64,000 nt of DNA from contig CAZLDI010000003.1 in the NCBI GenBank assembly GCA_964558415.1, positions 136,627 through 200,626 of the forward strand, given 5' to 3'. Under the pieces are notes generated by a model. The model did no database searches, had not been told where the DNA came from, and worked only from the letters and a program-made list of their open reading frames with translations. The position numbers and the translations under genes were made by a program. Below, piece after piece: positions 3,089 through 60,429 of the stretch (position 1 is its first letter; each line of letters begins with the position of its first letter). Origin of the DNA: an uncultured Dehalococcoidia bacterium. GTDB lineage: Bacteria; Chloroflexota; Dehalococcoidia; SM23-28-2; RBG-16-64-32.

Positions 3089-4102
3089 TTGAGGACGCGA
3101 ATCGCCAACCCCCTGTGGCTCGTGCTTGCGATCGCGCTGGCGTCGCTCGCTTTGCTATCCGCCTGCGACTCCGACGGCGAGGAAGGCGCACGCCAGCCCA
3201 CTGACCGCTCTTCGACGCCGACCACCACCACCGCTACCCCGGCCACCTTCGATTGCGACGCAGATTATCCCGGCAGCGCGGCGGACCCGGCGACGTTCCC
3301 TATCGAGATCGAAGACAGCTCGGGTGCCGCAGTCACGTTCGAACGGCCGCCGTCCCGCATCGTTTCGCTGTCGGCGGCGCACACGGAGATCTTCTACGCG
3401 ATTGGCGCCGGTGGACAGATTGCGGCGGCGGACAACTTCTCTGACTGCCCGAAGGCGGCCGAGGCGCTCGAGCATCTCGACTCCTTCGCGCCAAGCGCCG
3501 AGGCGATCATCGCGCTGGAGCCTGACCTGGTGCTGCTCTTCTTCGACCCGGGCGACCTGAGGACGTCGCTGGAGGCAACCGGCTTGAAGGTCGTCTTGTT
3601 CGACTCCCCCGCGTCGATCCGGGGAGTTTACGAGCAGATCGACCTGCTGGGCCAGATCAGCGGTCACGTGGAAGAGGCAGCGAACCTTGTGGCTTCGATG
3701 CAAGCCGGAATCGAAGGCATCGTCGAGTCGCTGGGCGACCGCGCCGGCCCGACGGTGTTCCATGAGGGCGACAACACGTTCTTCAGCGCCGGCCCGGGCA
3801 GCTTCGTCGGCGACCTGTACGACACCCTCCGCGCGGAGAATATCGCGAACGCCACCGGCGAGCCCTTCCCGCAGCTCACTCAAGAGGCGATCATCGCCGC
3901 CGCGCCGGAGGTCATCATCCTGGCGGACGAGGATGCCGGCGAGACGGCGGAGACAGTGAAGGCTCGGCCCGGCTGGGACTCGATCCCGGCGGTCCAGAAC
4001 GGCCGCATTTACACGATCGATCCGAACATCATCAGCCGGCCAGGGCCCCGGCTGGTTGAGGCTCTCGAAACACTGGCCGGCTTCCTGTACAGGGAGAGCT
4101 GA
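3089..4102 (+). CDS. btuF: ABC transporter periplasmic binding lipoprotein, cobalamin/iron-siderophore class (BtuF-like)
   Basis: It has a lipoprotein signal (LALLSAC) and the fold-class features of a B12/Fe3+-hydroxamate binding protein. It is first gene after the B12 riboswitch, with a TTG start and an AGGAGG RBS. Confidence 0.75.
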   Translation: MRTRIANPLWLVLAIALASLALLSACDSDGEEGARQPTDRSSTPTTTTATPATFDCDADYPGSAADPATFPIEIEDSSGAAVTFERPPSRIVSLSAAHTEIFYAIGAGGQIAAADNFSDCPKAAEALEHLDSFAPSAEAIIALEPDLVLLFFDPGDLRTSLEATGLKVVLFDSPASIRGVYEQIDLLGQISGHVEEAANLVASMQAGIEGIVESLGDRAGPTVFHEGDNTFFSAGPGSFVGDLYDTLRAENIANATGEPFPQLTQEAIIAAAPEVIILADEDAGETAETVKARPGWDSIPAVQNGRIYTIDPNIISRPGPRLVEALETLAGFLYRES

Positions 4103-4107
4103 ACGGC

Positions 4108-5202
4108 GTGGACGTACTCCGCCGCTCGCTGATGGTCAGCGCCGAAGCGGATGCGCTGCCAGGCCTGCGCCGCCCCTCCCTGCCACCGCGGCTGGCGCTC
4201 GGCGCGCTTGCGCTCCTCGGCGCCGCGGTAATCGGAGTCGCGCTCGGCCCGACAAGCGTCCCGCTCGATGCGACAGTGCGGATACTGCTGTCGCATCTGC
4301 CGGGCGTCGGGCTGGCCGAAGACGTCCCCGCTAGCTGGCAGAACATCATCTGGCAGCTGCGGCTTCCGCGCGTCCTCCTGGCAGGCGTGGCCGGGGCGAC
4401 GCTGGCGATGGCGGGGGCCACTTACCAGGGCGTGTTTCGCAACCCCCTGGCGGACCCGTATCTCATCGGCGTCGCCACCGGCGCCAACCTCGGTGCGACC
4501 ATCGTGTTGGTGTCTGACGTGAACGTCGCCTGGCACGGGCTGAGCGTCCTACCGCTGGCTGCCTTCGCCGGAGCGCTGATCTCCGTCGTCGCGGTGTACG
4601 GGATAGCGCGCGCCGGGAGCACGGCCTCATCGACGACGCTGATCCTCGCCGGCGTCGCGCTGTCGTCACTGTCAACGGCGATCACGTCATACCTGATGCT
4701 CCAGAGCACAACGAACACCACGCAAGTGTTCGCCGTCGTGCTCGGCGGGTTCAACACCGCATCGTGGGTGAAGCTGGCCTGGGTGCTGCCGTACGCGCTC
4801 CCCGCGGCGATCGTGGTGCTGATGCACGGTCGCATCTTGAACGTGCTCAGCCTGGACGAAGAGCAGGCGCGGCACCTGGGCGTGGACGTCGAACGGACGA
4901 AGCTGCTGCTGTTGGGCGCGGCGTCGCTCGCCGCGGCGGCGGCCGTCTCGGTCAGCGGGACGATCGGCTTTGTCGGCCTCATCGTCCCTCACGCTGTGCG
5001 GATGGTCTGGGGTTCGGACAACCGCCAGCTACTCCCGCTGGTGCTGCTGCTGGGCGCTGCCTTCCTGATCTGCGCGGACCTGGGCGCGAGGACGCTGGAC
5101 CGCGGCGAAGAGATACCGGTGGGGATCATCACCTCCTTCTGTGGGGTGCCATTCTTTCTGTACCTCCTGCGCCGGTCCAGGGGCGGCTACTCTCTGCCAT
5201 GA
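4108..5202 (+). CDS. btuC: FecCD-family ABC permease (BtuC-like)
   Basis: It is a 364-aa polytopic membrane protein with the typical FecCD-family GxxLxxAG region (LAGVAGATLAMAGATYQG). Confidence 0.8.
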   Translation: MDVLRRSLMVSAEADALPGLRRPSLPPRLALGALALLGAAVIGVALGPTSVPLDATVRILLSHLPGVGLAEDVPASWQNIIWQLRLPRVLLAGVAGATLAMAGATYQGVFRNPLADPYLIGVATGANLGATIVLVSDVNVAWHGLSVLPLAAFAGALISVVAVYGIARAGSTASSTTLILAGVALSSLSTAITSYLMLQSTTNTTQVFAVVLGGFNTASWVKLAWVLPYALPAAIVVLMHGRILNVLSLDEEQARHLGVDVERTKLLLLGAASLAAAAAVSVSGTIGFVGLIVPHAVRMVWGSDNRQLLPLVLLLGAAFLICADLGARTLDRGEEIPVGIITSFCGVPFFLYLLRRSRGGYSLP

Positions 5203-7340: not shown

Positions 7341-8041
7341 TCCCGGTCTCCGACTCCCCGCAGTCCCGCACCTTCCCCTACGTCAACGTCGCGCTCATCG
7401 TTTCCTCCGTCCTTGTCTTTCTGTACGAATTGACGCTCTCGTTGGCCGACGTCAATCGCTTCTACTTCGACCACGGCGTCGTGCCACGCCAGCTCGTCGA
7501 CTGGCTGGAGGACCCATCAGGCGTCACGGAGCCGCTGACCGTGGTGACCTCGGCGTTTGTGCACGGTGGCTGGCTGCACCTCGTGGGGAACATGCTCTAC
7601 CTCTGGGTGTTTGGCGACAACGTCGAGGACGCGCTGGGCCACGTCAAGTACGGAGCGTTCTACGTCGTGTCGGCGACCGGCGCGGTGGCGCTACAGGTGG
7701 CGGTGGACACCAACGAAGTGATCCCGATGGTCGGCGCGAGCGGCGCGATCGCAGGAGTGATGGGCGCCTACCTCGTCCTCTACCCGACGGCCAGGGTGAA
7801 CACGTTGATCTGGTTCTTCCCGGTGCCCGTGCCTGCCGTCGTTCTGATCGGCGTCTGGTTCTTGATGCAGCTCCTCAGCGGCACAGCGGCTCTCGGCGGC
7901 GACACGCTGTCAGAGCAGGCTGTCGCCTTCTGGGCGCATGTGGGCGGGTTCGTCACCGGCTTCGCGATAGTCCTGGGCGCGCGTCCGTTCATTCGCGTCC
8001 GGCCGCTGCACGCGCGCCGACGCCGGACGGATATGTGGTGA
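7337..8041 (+). CDS. Rhomboid family intramembrane serine protease
   Basis: The GASGAIAGVMGAY catalytic Ser motif, the HGGWLHLxxNM motif and a later His are present. The start is uncertain: a TTG at 7337 is chosen just after the upstream stop, while the ORF-track ATG at 7250 would overlap the preceding gene. Confidence 0.75.
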   Translation: MIPVSDSPQSRTFPYVNVALIVSSVLVFLYELTLSLADVNRFYFDHGVVPRQLVDWLEDPSGVTEPLTVVTSAFVHGGWLHLVGNMLYLWVFGDNVEDALGHVKYGAFYVVSATGAVALQVAVDTNEVIPMVGASGAIAGVMGAYLVLYPTARVNTLIWFFPVPVPAVVLIGVWFLMQLLSGTAALGGDTLSEQAVAFWAHVGGFVTGFAIVLGARPFIRVRPLHARRRRTDMW

Positions 8042-8081
8042 GCGGGCATCGCAGCGGGTGGCGATCTAGTGCCCATCAGCA

Positions 8082-8109
8082 GGGGCGCGTCATGATGCGC
8101 CCCTACGCC
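8082..8109. repeat. REP-like GC-rich hairpin palindrome (copy 1), GGGGCGCGTCATGATGCGCCCCTACGCC
   Basis: It is a near-perfect inverted repeat (stem GGGGCGC / GCGCCCC around a GTCATGAT loop) located about 80 nt upstream of the RAYT start. Confidence 0.7.
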
Positions 8110-8186
8110 GCGCATCCACTCGCCTGCTTGCCAAGGGTGACATCGGGACGTTGCATCTTCTGTGGACCGTCATTACGGTGGGCGTC

Positions 8187-8780
8187 ATGCGATACGATCC
8201 GCGAATACATCAGCGGCGATCTGTCCGCCTCCCATACTATGATTACCGCTCGAACGGGGCATACTTCGTCACAATCTGCACGCATCAACGAGAGGCTTTG
8301 TTCAATGACCACAGGTTCAAAGCAGCGACCGAAGATTCGTGGTGCGCCATCCCGCGCCATTATCCGCAGGCGGAGATCGACGAGTTCATCGTTATGCCCA
8401 ACCACGTTCACGGAATCATTCGGATTCACTGCGCAACCACCGTAGGGGCGCGTCATGATGCGCCCCTACGCCCCGAAATCCCCAGAGCCTCCGTTCTTCA
8501 GCGTCGCTCATTGGGCGCAATCGTTCTGCAATTCAAGTCGGCATCCGCTAAGCGAATCAACGAACTGAGGTCTAACCCGGGCGGCCGGGTCTGGCAGCGC
8601 AATTATTACGAGCGTGTATTGCGAGACGAGAGGGAACTGGACGCGGCGCGGGATTACATCCTGGATAACCCACGAAAGTGGGACGACGACATCAACAACC
8701 CGAAGAACATCCATCGTCTGGGGGTTCCGAAACGCCGAGGTGGGTTCTCCAGCGAAACGCAACGGTCCGGCAAGCGGTAA
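8187..8780 (+). mobile_element. REP-associated tyrosine transposase (RAYT, IS200/IS605-like Y1 transposase)
   Basis: The HuH motif NHVHGII, a C-terminal WQRNYYER catalytic-Tyr region and the N-terminal YFVTICTHQRE block are present. An alternative ATG start lies at 8151. Confidence 0.75.
8442..8471. repeat. REP-like hairpin palindrome (copy 2), CGTAGGGGCGCGTCATGATGCGCCCCTACG, embedded in-frame in the RAYT gene
   Basis: A 28-nt core is identical to copy 1 and has a longer 11-bp stem. It is translated as VGARHDAPLR within a roughly 15-aa insertion between the HuH motif and the conserved K/R-rich helix. Confidence 0.7.
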
Positions 8781-8893
8781 GTGGTGTCAGAGCGCATCAT
8801 TGACGTGCCCCCCCCCCCTCATTGACAACCCTCCGGCGCGGGTGTAGCTTTCGCTTATCCGCAGGCATATCGCGACGCAGGGGAGGTCTCACC

Positions 8894-9979
8894 ATGGCTA
8901 TCGATGTTGACGTACTGCAGAAGCTGAGCACTGAGGAGGACCTGCCCGAGCTTGACCTGAGCTGGCTGCGTCCGGACGACCACGAGAAGGTGGAGCGCGT
9001 CACGGCCGGCCGCCGCGGGATGACGCTGGACGAGATCGAGCGCGGGCGCGAGGTGCCTGCGCACGTGAGCGCCAACACCATCCGCCCCCGCGACGCGCGC
9101 GAGCGGCCCGACGCGCCGCGCACCGGCCAGTACTACTCGGATAAGGCGGACGTGTGGTCGGACAACTCGCGGCTGCTGTACGAGGAGGCGGTCCAGCGCC
9201 AGTGGTCTTCGGCCACGGACATCCCCTGGCACACGATCGAGCCGCTGCCGGACGACCTGGAGCGCGCGATGTGCCAGCTCTGCACCTTCTTGACCGAGGT
9301 CGAGTTCATCGCCGGGGACGCGCCGGCGCAGTGGCTGCGCAAGATCCCGAACGACTACTACGAGACGAAGCTGTTCCTCCTTACGCAGATCATGGATGAG
9401 GCGCGCCACCTGGATGTCTTCCGCAAGCGCGCCTTCGCCAACGGCGGCGGGCTGCTCTCCGAGAGCCAGTCCGGCCCCTCTCTGCGCATCATCCTGGACG
9501 CGAAGGACTTCACCGAGATGTCCGCGATCATGCACGTCTTCGCGGAGGGGTTCGTGCAGAGCCTCTTCCGCACCGGCGAACTGGTCTCCTTCAACGAGGC
9601 AGAGAAGACGATCTACCGTCTCTGCGCGCAGGACGAGTCACGGCACCTGGGCTTCGGCGTGATGCACCTGAAGTACATCCTGGAGAACGAGCCGGAGCGC
9701 CGGGAGGAGCTGCACCACTACCTTGACCAGGTCGAGGGCCCGCTCTCGCTGGACATCACGCAGGGGATCAGTGCCACGACGCCCTTCTTCGACGAGGCGG
9801 TGATGATCCTGGCCGGCGGCGGGCTGAAGAACGTCGACGTGGGGATGCAGAAGCTGATGGACATCCGCAAGAAGCAGGTGAACGAGTACATGCACCGCCT
9901 CGAGGTCGCCGGCCTCGGCGACCGCCGCGACCGCATGAACCCGTTCTTCCGCTCGCTGCTGGACCCGCCGCGGAATTAG
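8894..9979 (+). CDS. Ferritin-like diiron-carboxylate protein, ligand-complete (candidate catalytic alpha subunit; acyl-ACP-desaturase-like motif spacing)
   Basis: TEVE...MDEARH...FAEG...QDESRH gives E/ExxH/E/ExxH with spacings of about 35/49/31 residues. The start is placed at the ATG after a GGAGG-like site; the ORF track gives 8822. Confidence 0.55.
   Translation: MAIDVDVLQKLSTEEDLPELDLSWLRPDDHEKVERVTAGRRGMTLDEIERGREVPAHVSANTIRPRDARERPDAPRTGQYYSDKADVWSDNSRLLYEEAVQRQWSSATDIPWHTIEPLPDDLERAMCQLCTFLTEVEFIAGDAPAQWLRKIPNDYYETKLFLLTQIMDEARHLDVFRKRAFANGGGLLSESQSGPSLRIILDAKDFTEMSAIMHVFAEGFVQSLFRTGELVSFNEAEKTIYRLCAQDESRHLGFGVMHLKYILENEPERREELHHYLDQVEGPLSLDITQGISATTPFFDEAVMILAGGGLKNVDVGMQKLMDIRKKQVNEYMHRLEVAGLGDRRDRMNPFFRSLLDPPRN
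9949..9979. repeat. Direct repeat copy 1 (CCGCTCGCTGCTGGACCCGCCGCGGAATTAG) encoding the C-terminus RSLLDPPRN*
   Basis: It matches 10421-10451 at 31 of 33 positions, and both mismatches are synonymous. Confidence 0.8.
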
Positions 9980-60354: not shown

Positions 60355-60429
60355 GGGCCTGTAGCTCAGCGGTAGAGCTCCGGACTTTTAATCCGGGAGT
60401 CGTGGGTTCGAATCCCACCGGGCCCTCCA
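60355..60429 (+). tRNA. tRNA-Lys (anticodon UUU)
   Basis: A manual cloverleaf fits: acceptor GGGCCUG/CGGGCCC, U8, D-arm GCUC-AGCGGUA-GAGC, anticodon stem CCGGA/UCCGG with loop CUUUUAA, T-arm GUGGG-UUCGAAU-CCCAC, and an encoded CCA. Confidence 0.85.

Follow-up and report, generated by a model that had tools for sequence, protein, structure and literature searches.

Why does a gene for a REP-associated tyrosine transposase (RAYT, or TnpAREP) carry, in frame inside its own coding sequence, the same kind of hairpin that stands beside it? The gene in question lies in a 64,000-nt stretch of DNA (hereafter the window) from an uncultured Chloroflexota-like bacterium. A preliminary description of this DNA had called the RAYT gene, noted one palindrome about 80 nt ahead of it and another within it, and proposed either an in-frame insertion into the gene that mobilizes the element or a structured element put to use by its host. 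We examined the copies of the palindrome, the protein, the genomic surroundings, and the same site in related genes to ask which explanation best fits.

Three REP copies at one gene

An exact 28-nt repeat, GGGGCGCGTCATGATGCGCCCCTACGCC, occurs at positions 8082–8109 and 8445–8472 of the window, bearing out the report of one palindrome upstream of the RAYT gene and one inside it. The 22-nt core of the repeat was found at 2 sites in the 64-kb window, compared to 0 expected from 100 dinucleotide shuffles, and no further site appeared in the 64 kb with up to 3 mismatches allowed.

The upstream REP (8082–8109, minus strand) consists of the core GGGGCGCGTCATGATGCGCCCC followed by TACGCC, and lies 40 nt past the stop codon of a rhomboid protease gene and 77 nt ahead of the RAYT start codon (ATG at 8187). 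The internal REP (8441–8470) is a “double-foot” element, CGTAGGGGCGCGTCA followed by TGATGCGCCCCTACG, and forms a 30-nt near-perfect palindrome, CGTAGGGGCGC...GCGCCCCTACG, whose stem has 13 bp and one G:T pair and which bears a GTAG foot on each strand. The extended palindrome had been attributed to both copies, but it is confined to the internal one: with CAGGGGC as its 5′ side, the upstream copy shows a GTAG foot only on the minus strand. The upstream copy also folds more weakly, at −11 kcal/mol as single-stranded DNA and −19.7 kcal/mol as RNA, vs. −15.1 kcal/mol (z = −5.2) and −25.2 kcal/mol for the internal copy. As first described, the reading frame runs through the internal copy, giving (T)VGARHDAPLR, and in the open reading frame from ATG 8187 the palindrome corresponds to residues 86–95 (V-G-A-R-H-D-A-P-L-R).

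A gapped search revealed a third, decayed REP at 8789–8811 (plus strand), AGAGCGCATCATTGACGTGCCCC, which begins 9 nt past the RAYT stop codon and is followed by a run of C up to 8818. It carries 3 substitutions and 1 insertion and has lost its folding. Searching the window with up to 4 edits allowed gave no other additional site. Because ~0.65 such sites are expected per 64 kb, its occurrence within ~60 nt of the stop codon is unlikely to be due to chance.

The REP copies in the 64-kb window are just these three at the RAYT gene, with no dispersed copies of the RAYT-associated palindrome seen elsewhere in it. An Rfam scan of the whole window gave no match at the hairpins, and a scan of positions 7900–9000 for promoter and terminator consensus sequences found nothing.

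An intact transposase with a disordered loop

The RAYT gene (8187–8780, plus strand) encodes a 197-aa protein that Pfam, its homologs, and its predicted fold together identify as a Y1 HuH nuclease of the TnpAREP subclass 2.4 type. Its frame is open to 8780, as had been stated, and its N-terminus, MRYDPRIH, agrees with homolog starts (MRYDP or MRFDP). The Pfam family Y1_Tnp (PF01797) matched at 34 bits against a cut-off of 23, with the match ending at residue 86, where the insert and the palindrome begin. The NCBIfam equivalog model for REP-associated tyrosine transposases (NF047646, REP_Tyr_transpos) scored 74.5 bits, below its cut-off of 80, with the alignment split into two stretches by the insert. 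We note that this cut-off is a model threshold rather than a biological criterion. An IS200-type transposase was considered and rejected, as the NCBIfam model transpos_IS200 (NF033573) scored 24.4 bits against a cut-off of 55 and the tyrosine motif is not of the Y---Q form.

The protein has more than 7,800 relatives in the database, and we use “invariant” for residues that do not vary in an alignment of the RAYT with its 30 closest homologs (alignment A1). In the HuH motif, N72-H73-V74-H75 (8400–8411, plus strand), residues N72, H73, and H75 are invariant, as are W136-Q137 (8592–8597, plus strand) and R146. By homology, W136, Q137, and R146 are the counterparts of residues W94, Q95, and R104 of the Escherichia coli TnpAREP, which touch the GTAG guide according to the subclass survey discussed below (PMC6006769). 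The predicted catalytic tyrosine is Y157 (8655–8657, plus strand) in the motif YILDNP, where Y157 and N161 are invariant. The distance from W136 to Y157 is 21 residues, the same spacing as from W94 to Y115 in the E. coli enzyme, and Y157 sits in a helix (148–167) of the predicted structure. The catalytic tyrosine region had been called intact, and Y157 is indeed present. However, a tyrosine of the segment WQRNYYER is not the catalytic one, since homology to the E. coli TnpAREP numbering points to Y157 instead.

An AlphaFold2 model of the protein had a mean pLDDT of 77.5, with values of 88–98 over most of the core, a short extra helix (55–58) after helix 42–53, and a low-confidence tail (180–197). 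Between strand 73–80 and helix 109–128, residues 81–108 had no secondary structure, and pLDDT fell below 50 at residues 84–94 and 99–101. This combination suggests that the palindrome-encoded residues 86–95 lie in a floppy loop. All of the top 30 Foldseek matches were TnpAREP or IS200/IS605 transposases, the first being 4ER8 (E = 2.7e-7), followed by the ISDra2, IS608, and IS200 transposases. The link to 4ER8 comes from fold comparison only, as a sequence search of the PDB returned nothing at E ≤ 0.01. In 4ER8, the REP-associated transposase of E. coli is seen in complex with a REP. Overall, the motifs and fold of the enzyme are intact.

A discrete unit with an empty site in a relative

Upstream of the RAYT gene lie genes for a histidine phosphatase and the rhomboid protease, and downstream lies a gene for a 361-aa ferritin-like protein. 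In a related Chloroflexi metagenome-assembled genome (MAG; locus L181), the rhomboid gene is followed after 136 nt by the ferritin-like gene, with no RAYT between them, and the ferritin-like protein is 86% identical to that of the window. The REP-RAYT-REP unit (“REPtron”; 8076–8812, plus strand) is therefore lacking at the orthologous intergenic region. The deletions that best restored the alignment to L181 ran from 8076/8096 to 8804/8812 and removed 717–729 nt. The left boundary can be placed only to within ~20 nt and the right one to within ~8 nt, with 8076–8804 and 8096–8812 scoring about equally and flanks that are 72–78% identical. Homology to L181 picks up again at CCTCATTGACA, directly after the decayed REP. 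The empty site of L181 itself holds a weak REP-like stretch, GTGCGATGACCCACC.

This empty site indicates that the REP-RAYT-REP arrangement was gained or lost as one unit of ~720 nt. The GC content is 0.55–0.59 across the unit vs. 0.65–0.70 in the flanks, which favors gain. The empty site and the third, decayed copy extend what had originally been observed at this locus. A JGI contig (L179) with the same three features was 99.93% identical to the window over 17 kb and therefore gives no independent evidence. Two further relatives of the downstream gene (L180 and L182) had other upstream neighbors and were not informative on the empty site.

The same loop is occupied in most of the family

The preliminary description raised the possibility of a lineage-specific insertion, and the 28/28 identity of the internal and upstream copies, which includes 6 nt beyond the palindrome, does point to a recent copying event. 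By contrast, homologs with only 44–60% identity to the window RAYT, from Chloroflexota, Meiothermus, Nitrospinota, Flavobacteriales, and other groups, have a REP-type palindrome in the corresponding position. P0002, P0003, and P0005, the closest three distinct homologs at 59–60% identity, read VGARHDAP or VGAHHDAPL there. The site was thus occupied long before the lineage of the window arose, and only the sequence now present may be recent. We therefore regard it as very unlikely that a REP entered a canonical RAYT gene, in frame, recently and in this lineage alone: the alignment of homologs overturned this proposal, with most of them bearing a REP-type palindrome in the same β3-αC loop.

To describe this occupancy more broadly, we assembled 78 readable loci (74 of 80 metagenome loci, L064, L077, L090, and the window) with ~40–55% identity. 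Between the HuH and WQ motifs, 58 of the 78 had a perfect stem (≥9 bp, loop ≤10 nt), while control coding stretches of the same genes contained such stems in only 3 of 75 and 1 of 78 cases. In homologs as in the window, the hairpin is located in the β3-αC loop, between the HuH strand and helix αC. The DNA of this loop usually consists of GTAGGGGC, 4–6 variable nt, a short loop, the complement, and then GCCCCTAC, and some homologs have two or more palindrome copies or long spacers separating the halves. The distance from HuH to WQ is 64 aa in the window RAYT, to which the insert adds ~19–20 residues; across the family it ranges from 44–45 aa (L125, L127, and L176) to more than 100 aa. These three shortest members are insert-free and have intact catalytic motifs.

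Could the palindrome be a mere by-product of a peptide, VGAxHAxPL, that the protein needs, with the extragenic copies being coincidental or fragments of the gene? Among the 30 closest homologs, residues G87, A88, P93, and L94 hardly vary, as such a need would predict. Nearly all of the best 120 of the >7,800 homologs have a variable stretch after NHVHGI, in which VGARHDAPL, VGAQHAAPL, VGARHASPL, VGATHASPL, and VGAQGLAPL occur. However, GRGSPSPL, VGAGFPRPY, and GTACRAPT are found at this position among the same 120, and other stems give VGAGFPRPY, GSRTAPT, or GGETPPLQ. The same DNA foot is also read in two phases: GTAGGG is split as GTA-GGG in 46 cases (VGA...PL) and as xGT-AGG in 18 (RG...APT), which yields unrelated peptides, and in 0 cases does it fall in the phase that would make TAG a stop codon. 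Two phases with differing peptides indicate that conservation applies to a DNA palindrome, subject to the need for an open frame, rather than to a peptide.

The pattern of substitution in the stem agrees with this. Among 23 loci whose 28-nt palindromes share one register, the outer 8 bp (GTAGGGGC/GCCCCTAC) are essentially invariant, and the inner 5 bp change in a compensatory fashion. In the inner stem, 97.3% of cells were paired, compared to ~40–48% in slid registers, and double-sided changes numbered 56, whereas shuffling gave 15.9, and 0 of 500 shuffles attained 56. The level of pairing is partly circular, because the hairpin set was picked as hairpins; the control coding regions (3/75 and 1/78) are a fairer comparison and address this circularity only in part. 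Together with the covariation at the DNA level and the two phases, the predicted disorder of the segment, the existence of insert-free members, and the dispersed, intergenic-type extragenic copies with GTAG feet in other genomes make a peptide-level origin highly improbable. At the level of the peptide, the palindrome is accordingly not “simply part of the protein family”, the alternative that the preliminary description had allowed for.

The internal copy often matches its own flanking REPs

We next compared each internal palindrome with the DNA just outside its own gene. With the full internal palindrome as a probe (≤2 mismatches over 20–24 nt) and only loci with at least 700 nt on both sides considered, 17 of 36 loci proved to have a copy immediately outside the gene, vs. 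1.9% of cross-locus control pairs. Flanking copies were typically offset from the internal copy by ~−260 to −450 or ~+240 to +490, and about half of the 36 loci had no matching flanking copy. Probes of 12-nt arms were dropped, as the shared foot dominates short probes and raised the cross-locus background to 14.5%, compared to 1.9% for full-palindrome probes. This matching of internal copies to their own flanking REPs, far above chance, implies a part for the internal copy in the turnover of REPs.

A scan of the genome collection with GGGGCGCRTCATGAYGCGCCCC returned 98 stretches, all of them from organisms other than that of the window. An Acidobacteria MAG contained 53 copies of GGGGCGCATCATGATGCGCCCC, each with a one-sided GTAG foot and some in doublets; the repeat lies on both sides of a RAYT homolog that has no internal copy. 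An Anaerolineae MAG held 9 copies of the window core or one-base variants of it, mostly double-foot. Two Flavobacteriales RAYTs had one or two internal copies, read as GARHDAPL, and in one Flavobacteriales locus a truncated upstream RAYT paralog carried another palindrome at the equivalent internal position. In a Terriglobia RAYT, a REP copy was located ~35 nt upstream of the start. Extragenic copies in other genomes were dispersed, in intergenic-type contexts, and bore GTAG feet.

The call of a RAYT gene and the identification of its internal palindrome as a cognate REP sitting in frame, as originally suggested, are thus supported.

Relation to known systems

[quoted passage not shown] (2017). 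According to that study, the inserts of subclass 2.4 lie between HuH and Y, keep the reading frame, and form a loop modeled as a peripheral extension. Its members are characterized by the motifs NH[IFV]H, WQ, and YIxNNP, a median length of 194 aa, a median HuH-Y distance of 88 aa (vs. 58–67), an 8-aa insertion at the end of αB, and the lack of a conserved C-terminal tail domain (PMC6006769). In the window RAYT these motifs read NHVH, WQ, and YILDNP, the last departing from the consensus once (D for N), and at 197 aa the protein has an enlarged distance of 82 aa from H75 to Y157. Its unstructured residues 81–108 correspond to the variable β3-αC insertion. The double-foot internal REP, GTAGGGGCGC...GCGCCCCTAC, is of the GT[AG]G...C[TC]AC type, and the gene has flanking GTAG REPs in addition to the in-frame REP between HuH and Y. 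The family of the window RAYT and subclass 2.4 alike have a patchy distribution over several phyla. With an intact REP upstream and a decayed one downstream, GT[AG]G-footed REPs occur within ~1 kb of the gene, as is characteristic of class 2 TnpAREPs. In its Table S1, the same study (PMC6006769) gives 28-nt double-foot REPs for subclass 2.4, such as GTAGGGGCACAGCGCGCTGTGCCCCTAC from Chloroflexus aggregans, and this REP is identical to the internal palindrome of one of our loci (L155).

By sequence and model, then, the window protein fits subclass 2.4 in motifs, spacing, fold, and REP type, in all features tested. Besides the tyrosine motif, some differences exist: PMC6006769 stresses Cyanobacteria and Bacteroidetes, whereas our host is Chloroflexota-like; the window palindrome, with its loop GTCATGAT, was not found among the legible REPs of Table S1; and an empty-site comparison for such a cassette was not found in the available portion of that paper. 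In the portion of the TnpAREP/RAYT literature compared, no enzymatic activity is reported for any subclass 2.4 member.

The E. coli TnpAREP (YafM; 4ER8; subclass 2.2, RAYT group 2) shares the Y1 HuH fold with the window RAYT, conserves the GTAG-guide residues W, Q, and R, and is likewise encoded by a gene flanked by its own REPs. However, it is only ~19% identical to the window protein, its motifs are DHLH, WE, and YIHYNP, its REPs have a bulged stem, and its gene has neither an internal REP nor a β3-αC insert. Similarly, IS200/IS605 TnpA (subclass 1.1) resembles the window RAYT in its HuH/Y1 fold, its gene bracketed by subterminal hairpins, and its insertion as a discrete unit; unlike it, the window gene encodes YILDNP rather than Y---Q, has no tnpB, and is accompanied by hairpins that are GTAG REPs.

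GTAG-tagged REPs and REPs within other genes have also been described (Di Nocera et al. 2013; PMC3733652). The Rickettsia RPEs and the GTAG/CGTC REPs found in open reading frames are likewise short GC-rich palindromes tolerated in frame, adding 10–30 aa to functional proteins (PMC3733652). In those cases the host genes are unrelated to the mobilizing enzyme and the sites differ between genes, whereas here the host is the cognate transposase gene itself, occupied at one and the same site throughout the family.

A tolerated passenger or a maintained element?

Our preferred explanation, to which we assign a probability of roughly 0.7, is that the locus is a TnpAREP subclass 2.4 (RAYT group 4) REPtron and that the REP within its gene sits in frame in a disordered loop, where the insertion is tolerated. 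In this account the cassette of ~720 nt consists of a GTAG-footed REP hairpin, a gene for a 197-aa HuH/Tyr single-stranded DNA nuclease, and a second REP that has since decayed. The enzyme would bind REP hairpins in single-stranded DNA, read the GTAG foot, and cut and rejoin the strand, as has been shown for the E. coli TnpAREP; this predicted activity rests on the analogy with that enzyme and on the conserved guide-binding and catalytic residues. Its products would land preferentially near the gene or at existing REPs. The way internal copies agree with flanking ones from locus to locus, together with the 28/28 identity in the window, suggests such local reinsertion or replacement. Copies that land in the gene would survive only if they are in frame, free of stops, and structurally harmless, which would restrict them to a peripheral loop; such a filter on frame and location is shown by the lack of any copy in the stop phase and by there being only one permissive loop. 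Once there, the internal copy would continue to be replaced or homogenized along with the local REP population, so that occupancy of the site would be old and the internal sequence now present, identical at 28/28 positions to the upstream copy, would be young.

The main competing explanation holds that the internal hairpin is a maintained cis-element. The transposase might bind or cut its own gene (as transient single-stranded DNA) or its own mRNA and thereby sense itself or limit its own expression, or the internal copy might serve as a protected REP master copy or template. If true, self-regulation or a template role would explain why one loop is occupied by a cognate hairpin throughout a deep, multi-phylum family. 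The occupancy of this loop in 58 of 78 family members from several phyla is consistent with such selection, as is the retention of the palindrome at the nucleotide level, including at synonymous or disordered-loop positions. Likewise, the internal copy is the best formed of the three in the window (13 bp, double foot), while the downstream one has decayed, and it would form a strong RNA stem of −25 kcal/mol.

Yet a required element is difficult to reconcile with insert-free members that retain intact catalytic motifs (L125, L127, and L176), or with the Acidobacteria RAYT that is flanked by the same REP and has no internal copy. In many internal copies, moreover, the feet are degraded, parts are duplicated in tandem, or spacers are long, features that look more like drift and slippage than like a constrained operator, and the scan of positions 7900–9000 revealed no terminator- or promoter-like signal nearby. 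Further, the only published view (PMC6006769) regards the insert as peripheral and likely to be neutral. We therefore consider a maintained cis-element unlikely, though clearly the most credible of the alternatives.

The data are explained by a tolerated insertion without any function of the internal hairpin. That one loop is filled so consistently in so deep a family might also reflect selection for the hairpin, but tolerance needs none.

Implications

The arrangement seen here has been known since 2018 as the hallmark of subclass 2.4 (PMC6006769), and a single further locus adds little to that description. It is nevertheless a clean example, in which an intact enzyme, perfect and decayed flanking REPs, an identical internal REP, and the empty site of a relative are all found together. 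The wider survey shows that the in-loop hairpin phenomenon holds in much larger metagenomic samples, with stems in 58 of 78 loci and covariation of the inner stem. If the internal copy were a master copy linked to its gene, the enzyme and its substrate would co-evolve, and the REP population of the genome would be renewed from within the gene.

Genomic setting of the RAYT cassette

Across the 64-kb window, Rfam returned only two matches: a cobalamin riboswitch at 2803-2979 on the forward strand (RF00174, 54.8 bits) and a tRNA gene at 60355-60426, also on the forward strand (RF00005, 74.7 bits). The riboswitch is followed on its 3' side by a run of genes encoding a periplasmic-binding protein, FecCD, an ABC-ATPase and Cob_adeno_trans, and together these form a B12 uptake and salvage cluster. 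The end of this cluster directly precedes the histidine phosphatase and rhomboid genes. Downstream of the RAYT gene, a forward-strand gene at 8894-9979 encodes a 361-aa protein that has no match in Pfam and more than 2500 relatives; in MAGs of Chloroflexi and Dehalococcoidia, some of these carry the name "ferritin-like domain-containing protein". The protein belongs to a widespread uncharacterised family.

The right-hand junction of the cassette is marked by a run of 11 C (8808-8818) straight after the decayed downstream REP. At this position, the empty site of a related Chloroflexi MAG (L181) has CCCACC. The C run may have arisen as an artefact at the junction during insertion, or it may be a tract prone to slippage. 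We also note that the empty rhomboid/ferritin-like spacer of L181 holds GTGCGATGACCCACC at 2520-2545, which bears a weak likeness to half of the REP core. The resemblance could be due to chance; alternatively, the stretch could be what an excised cassette left behind, or a site that is preferentially targeted.

Variation of the REP-holding loop

Several homologs have an enlarged REP-holding loop, with in-frame tandem repeats of a partial hairpin arm or of adjacent codons (L116, 1615-1864; L130, 4219-4540; L163, 2233-2536; L149, 281-527; L121; and L173). Repeat units among these loops include NVGAVQ (four copies), (N/H)(V/M)G(A/T/M)T (~10), PQNPS (seven) and PTPV (five). These expansions suggest hairpin-driven slippage, which would render the RAYT loop hypervariable.

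The RAYT gene of locus L102 (4001-4582) contains a REPIN-like doublet with 21-bp arms and a 70-nt spacer, and these arms recur as pairs 84 nt apart on either side of the gene, at near-symmetric offsets of -363/-279 and +350/+434. Locus L090, from a Flavobacteriales MAG (JADKJM010000004.1), contains a tandem pair of RAYT genes (L090 positions 3100-4330). The upstream copy is truncated or frameshifted and has the internal palindrome GTAGGGGCGGCGAATTCGCCGCCCCTAC. The downstream copy is intact and has GGGGCGCGTCATGACGCGCCC(C) internally twice, 106 nt apart. The paralogs carry differing REPs at an identical protein position.

A REP core shared across phyla

Dispersed copies of the REP core were found in Acidobacteria MAG-255, where GGGGCGCATCATGATGCGCCCC occurs in at least 53 identical copies (JAEUQQ010000600.1 and ~40 other JAEUQQ01 loci). 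These have single GTAG feet, and several form doublets 36-126 nt apart. The RAYT gene amid these copies lacks an internal REP, and its product is only 36% identical to the window RAYT. Therefore, RAYTs of different phyla that diverge widely from one another are served by an identical REP core.
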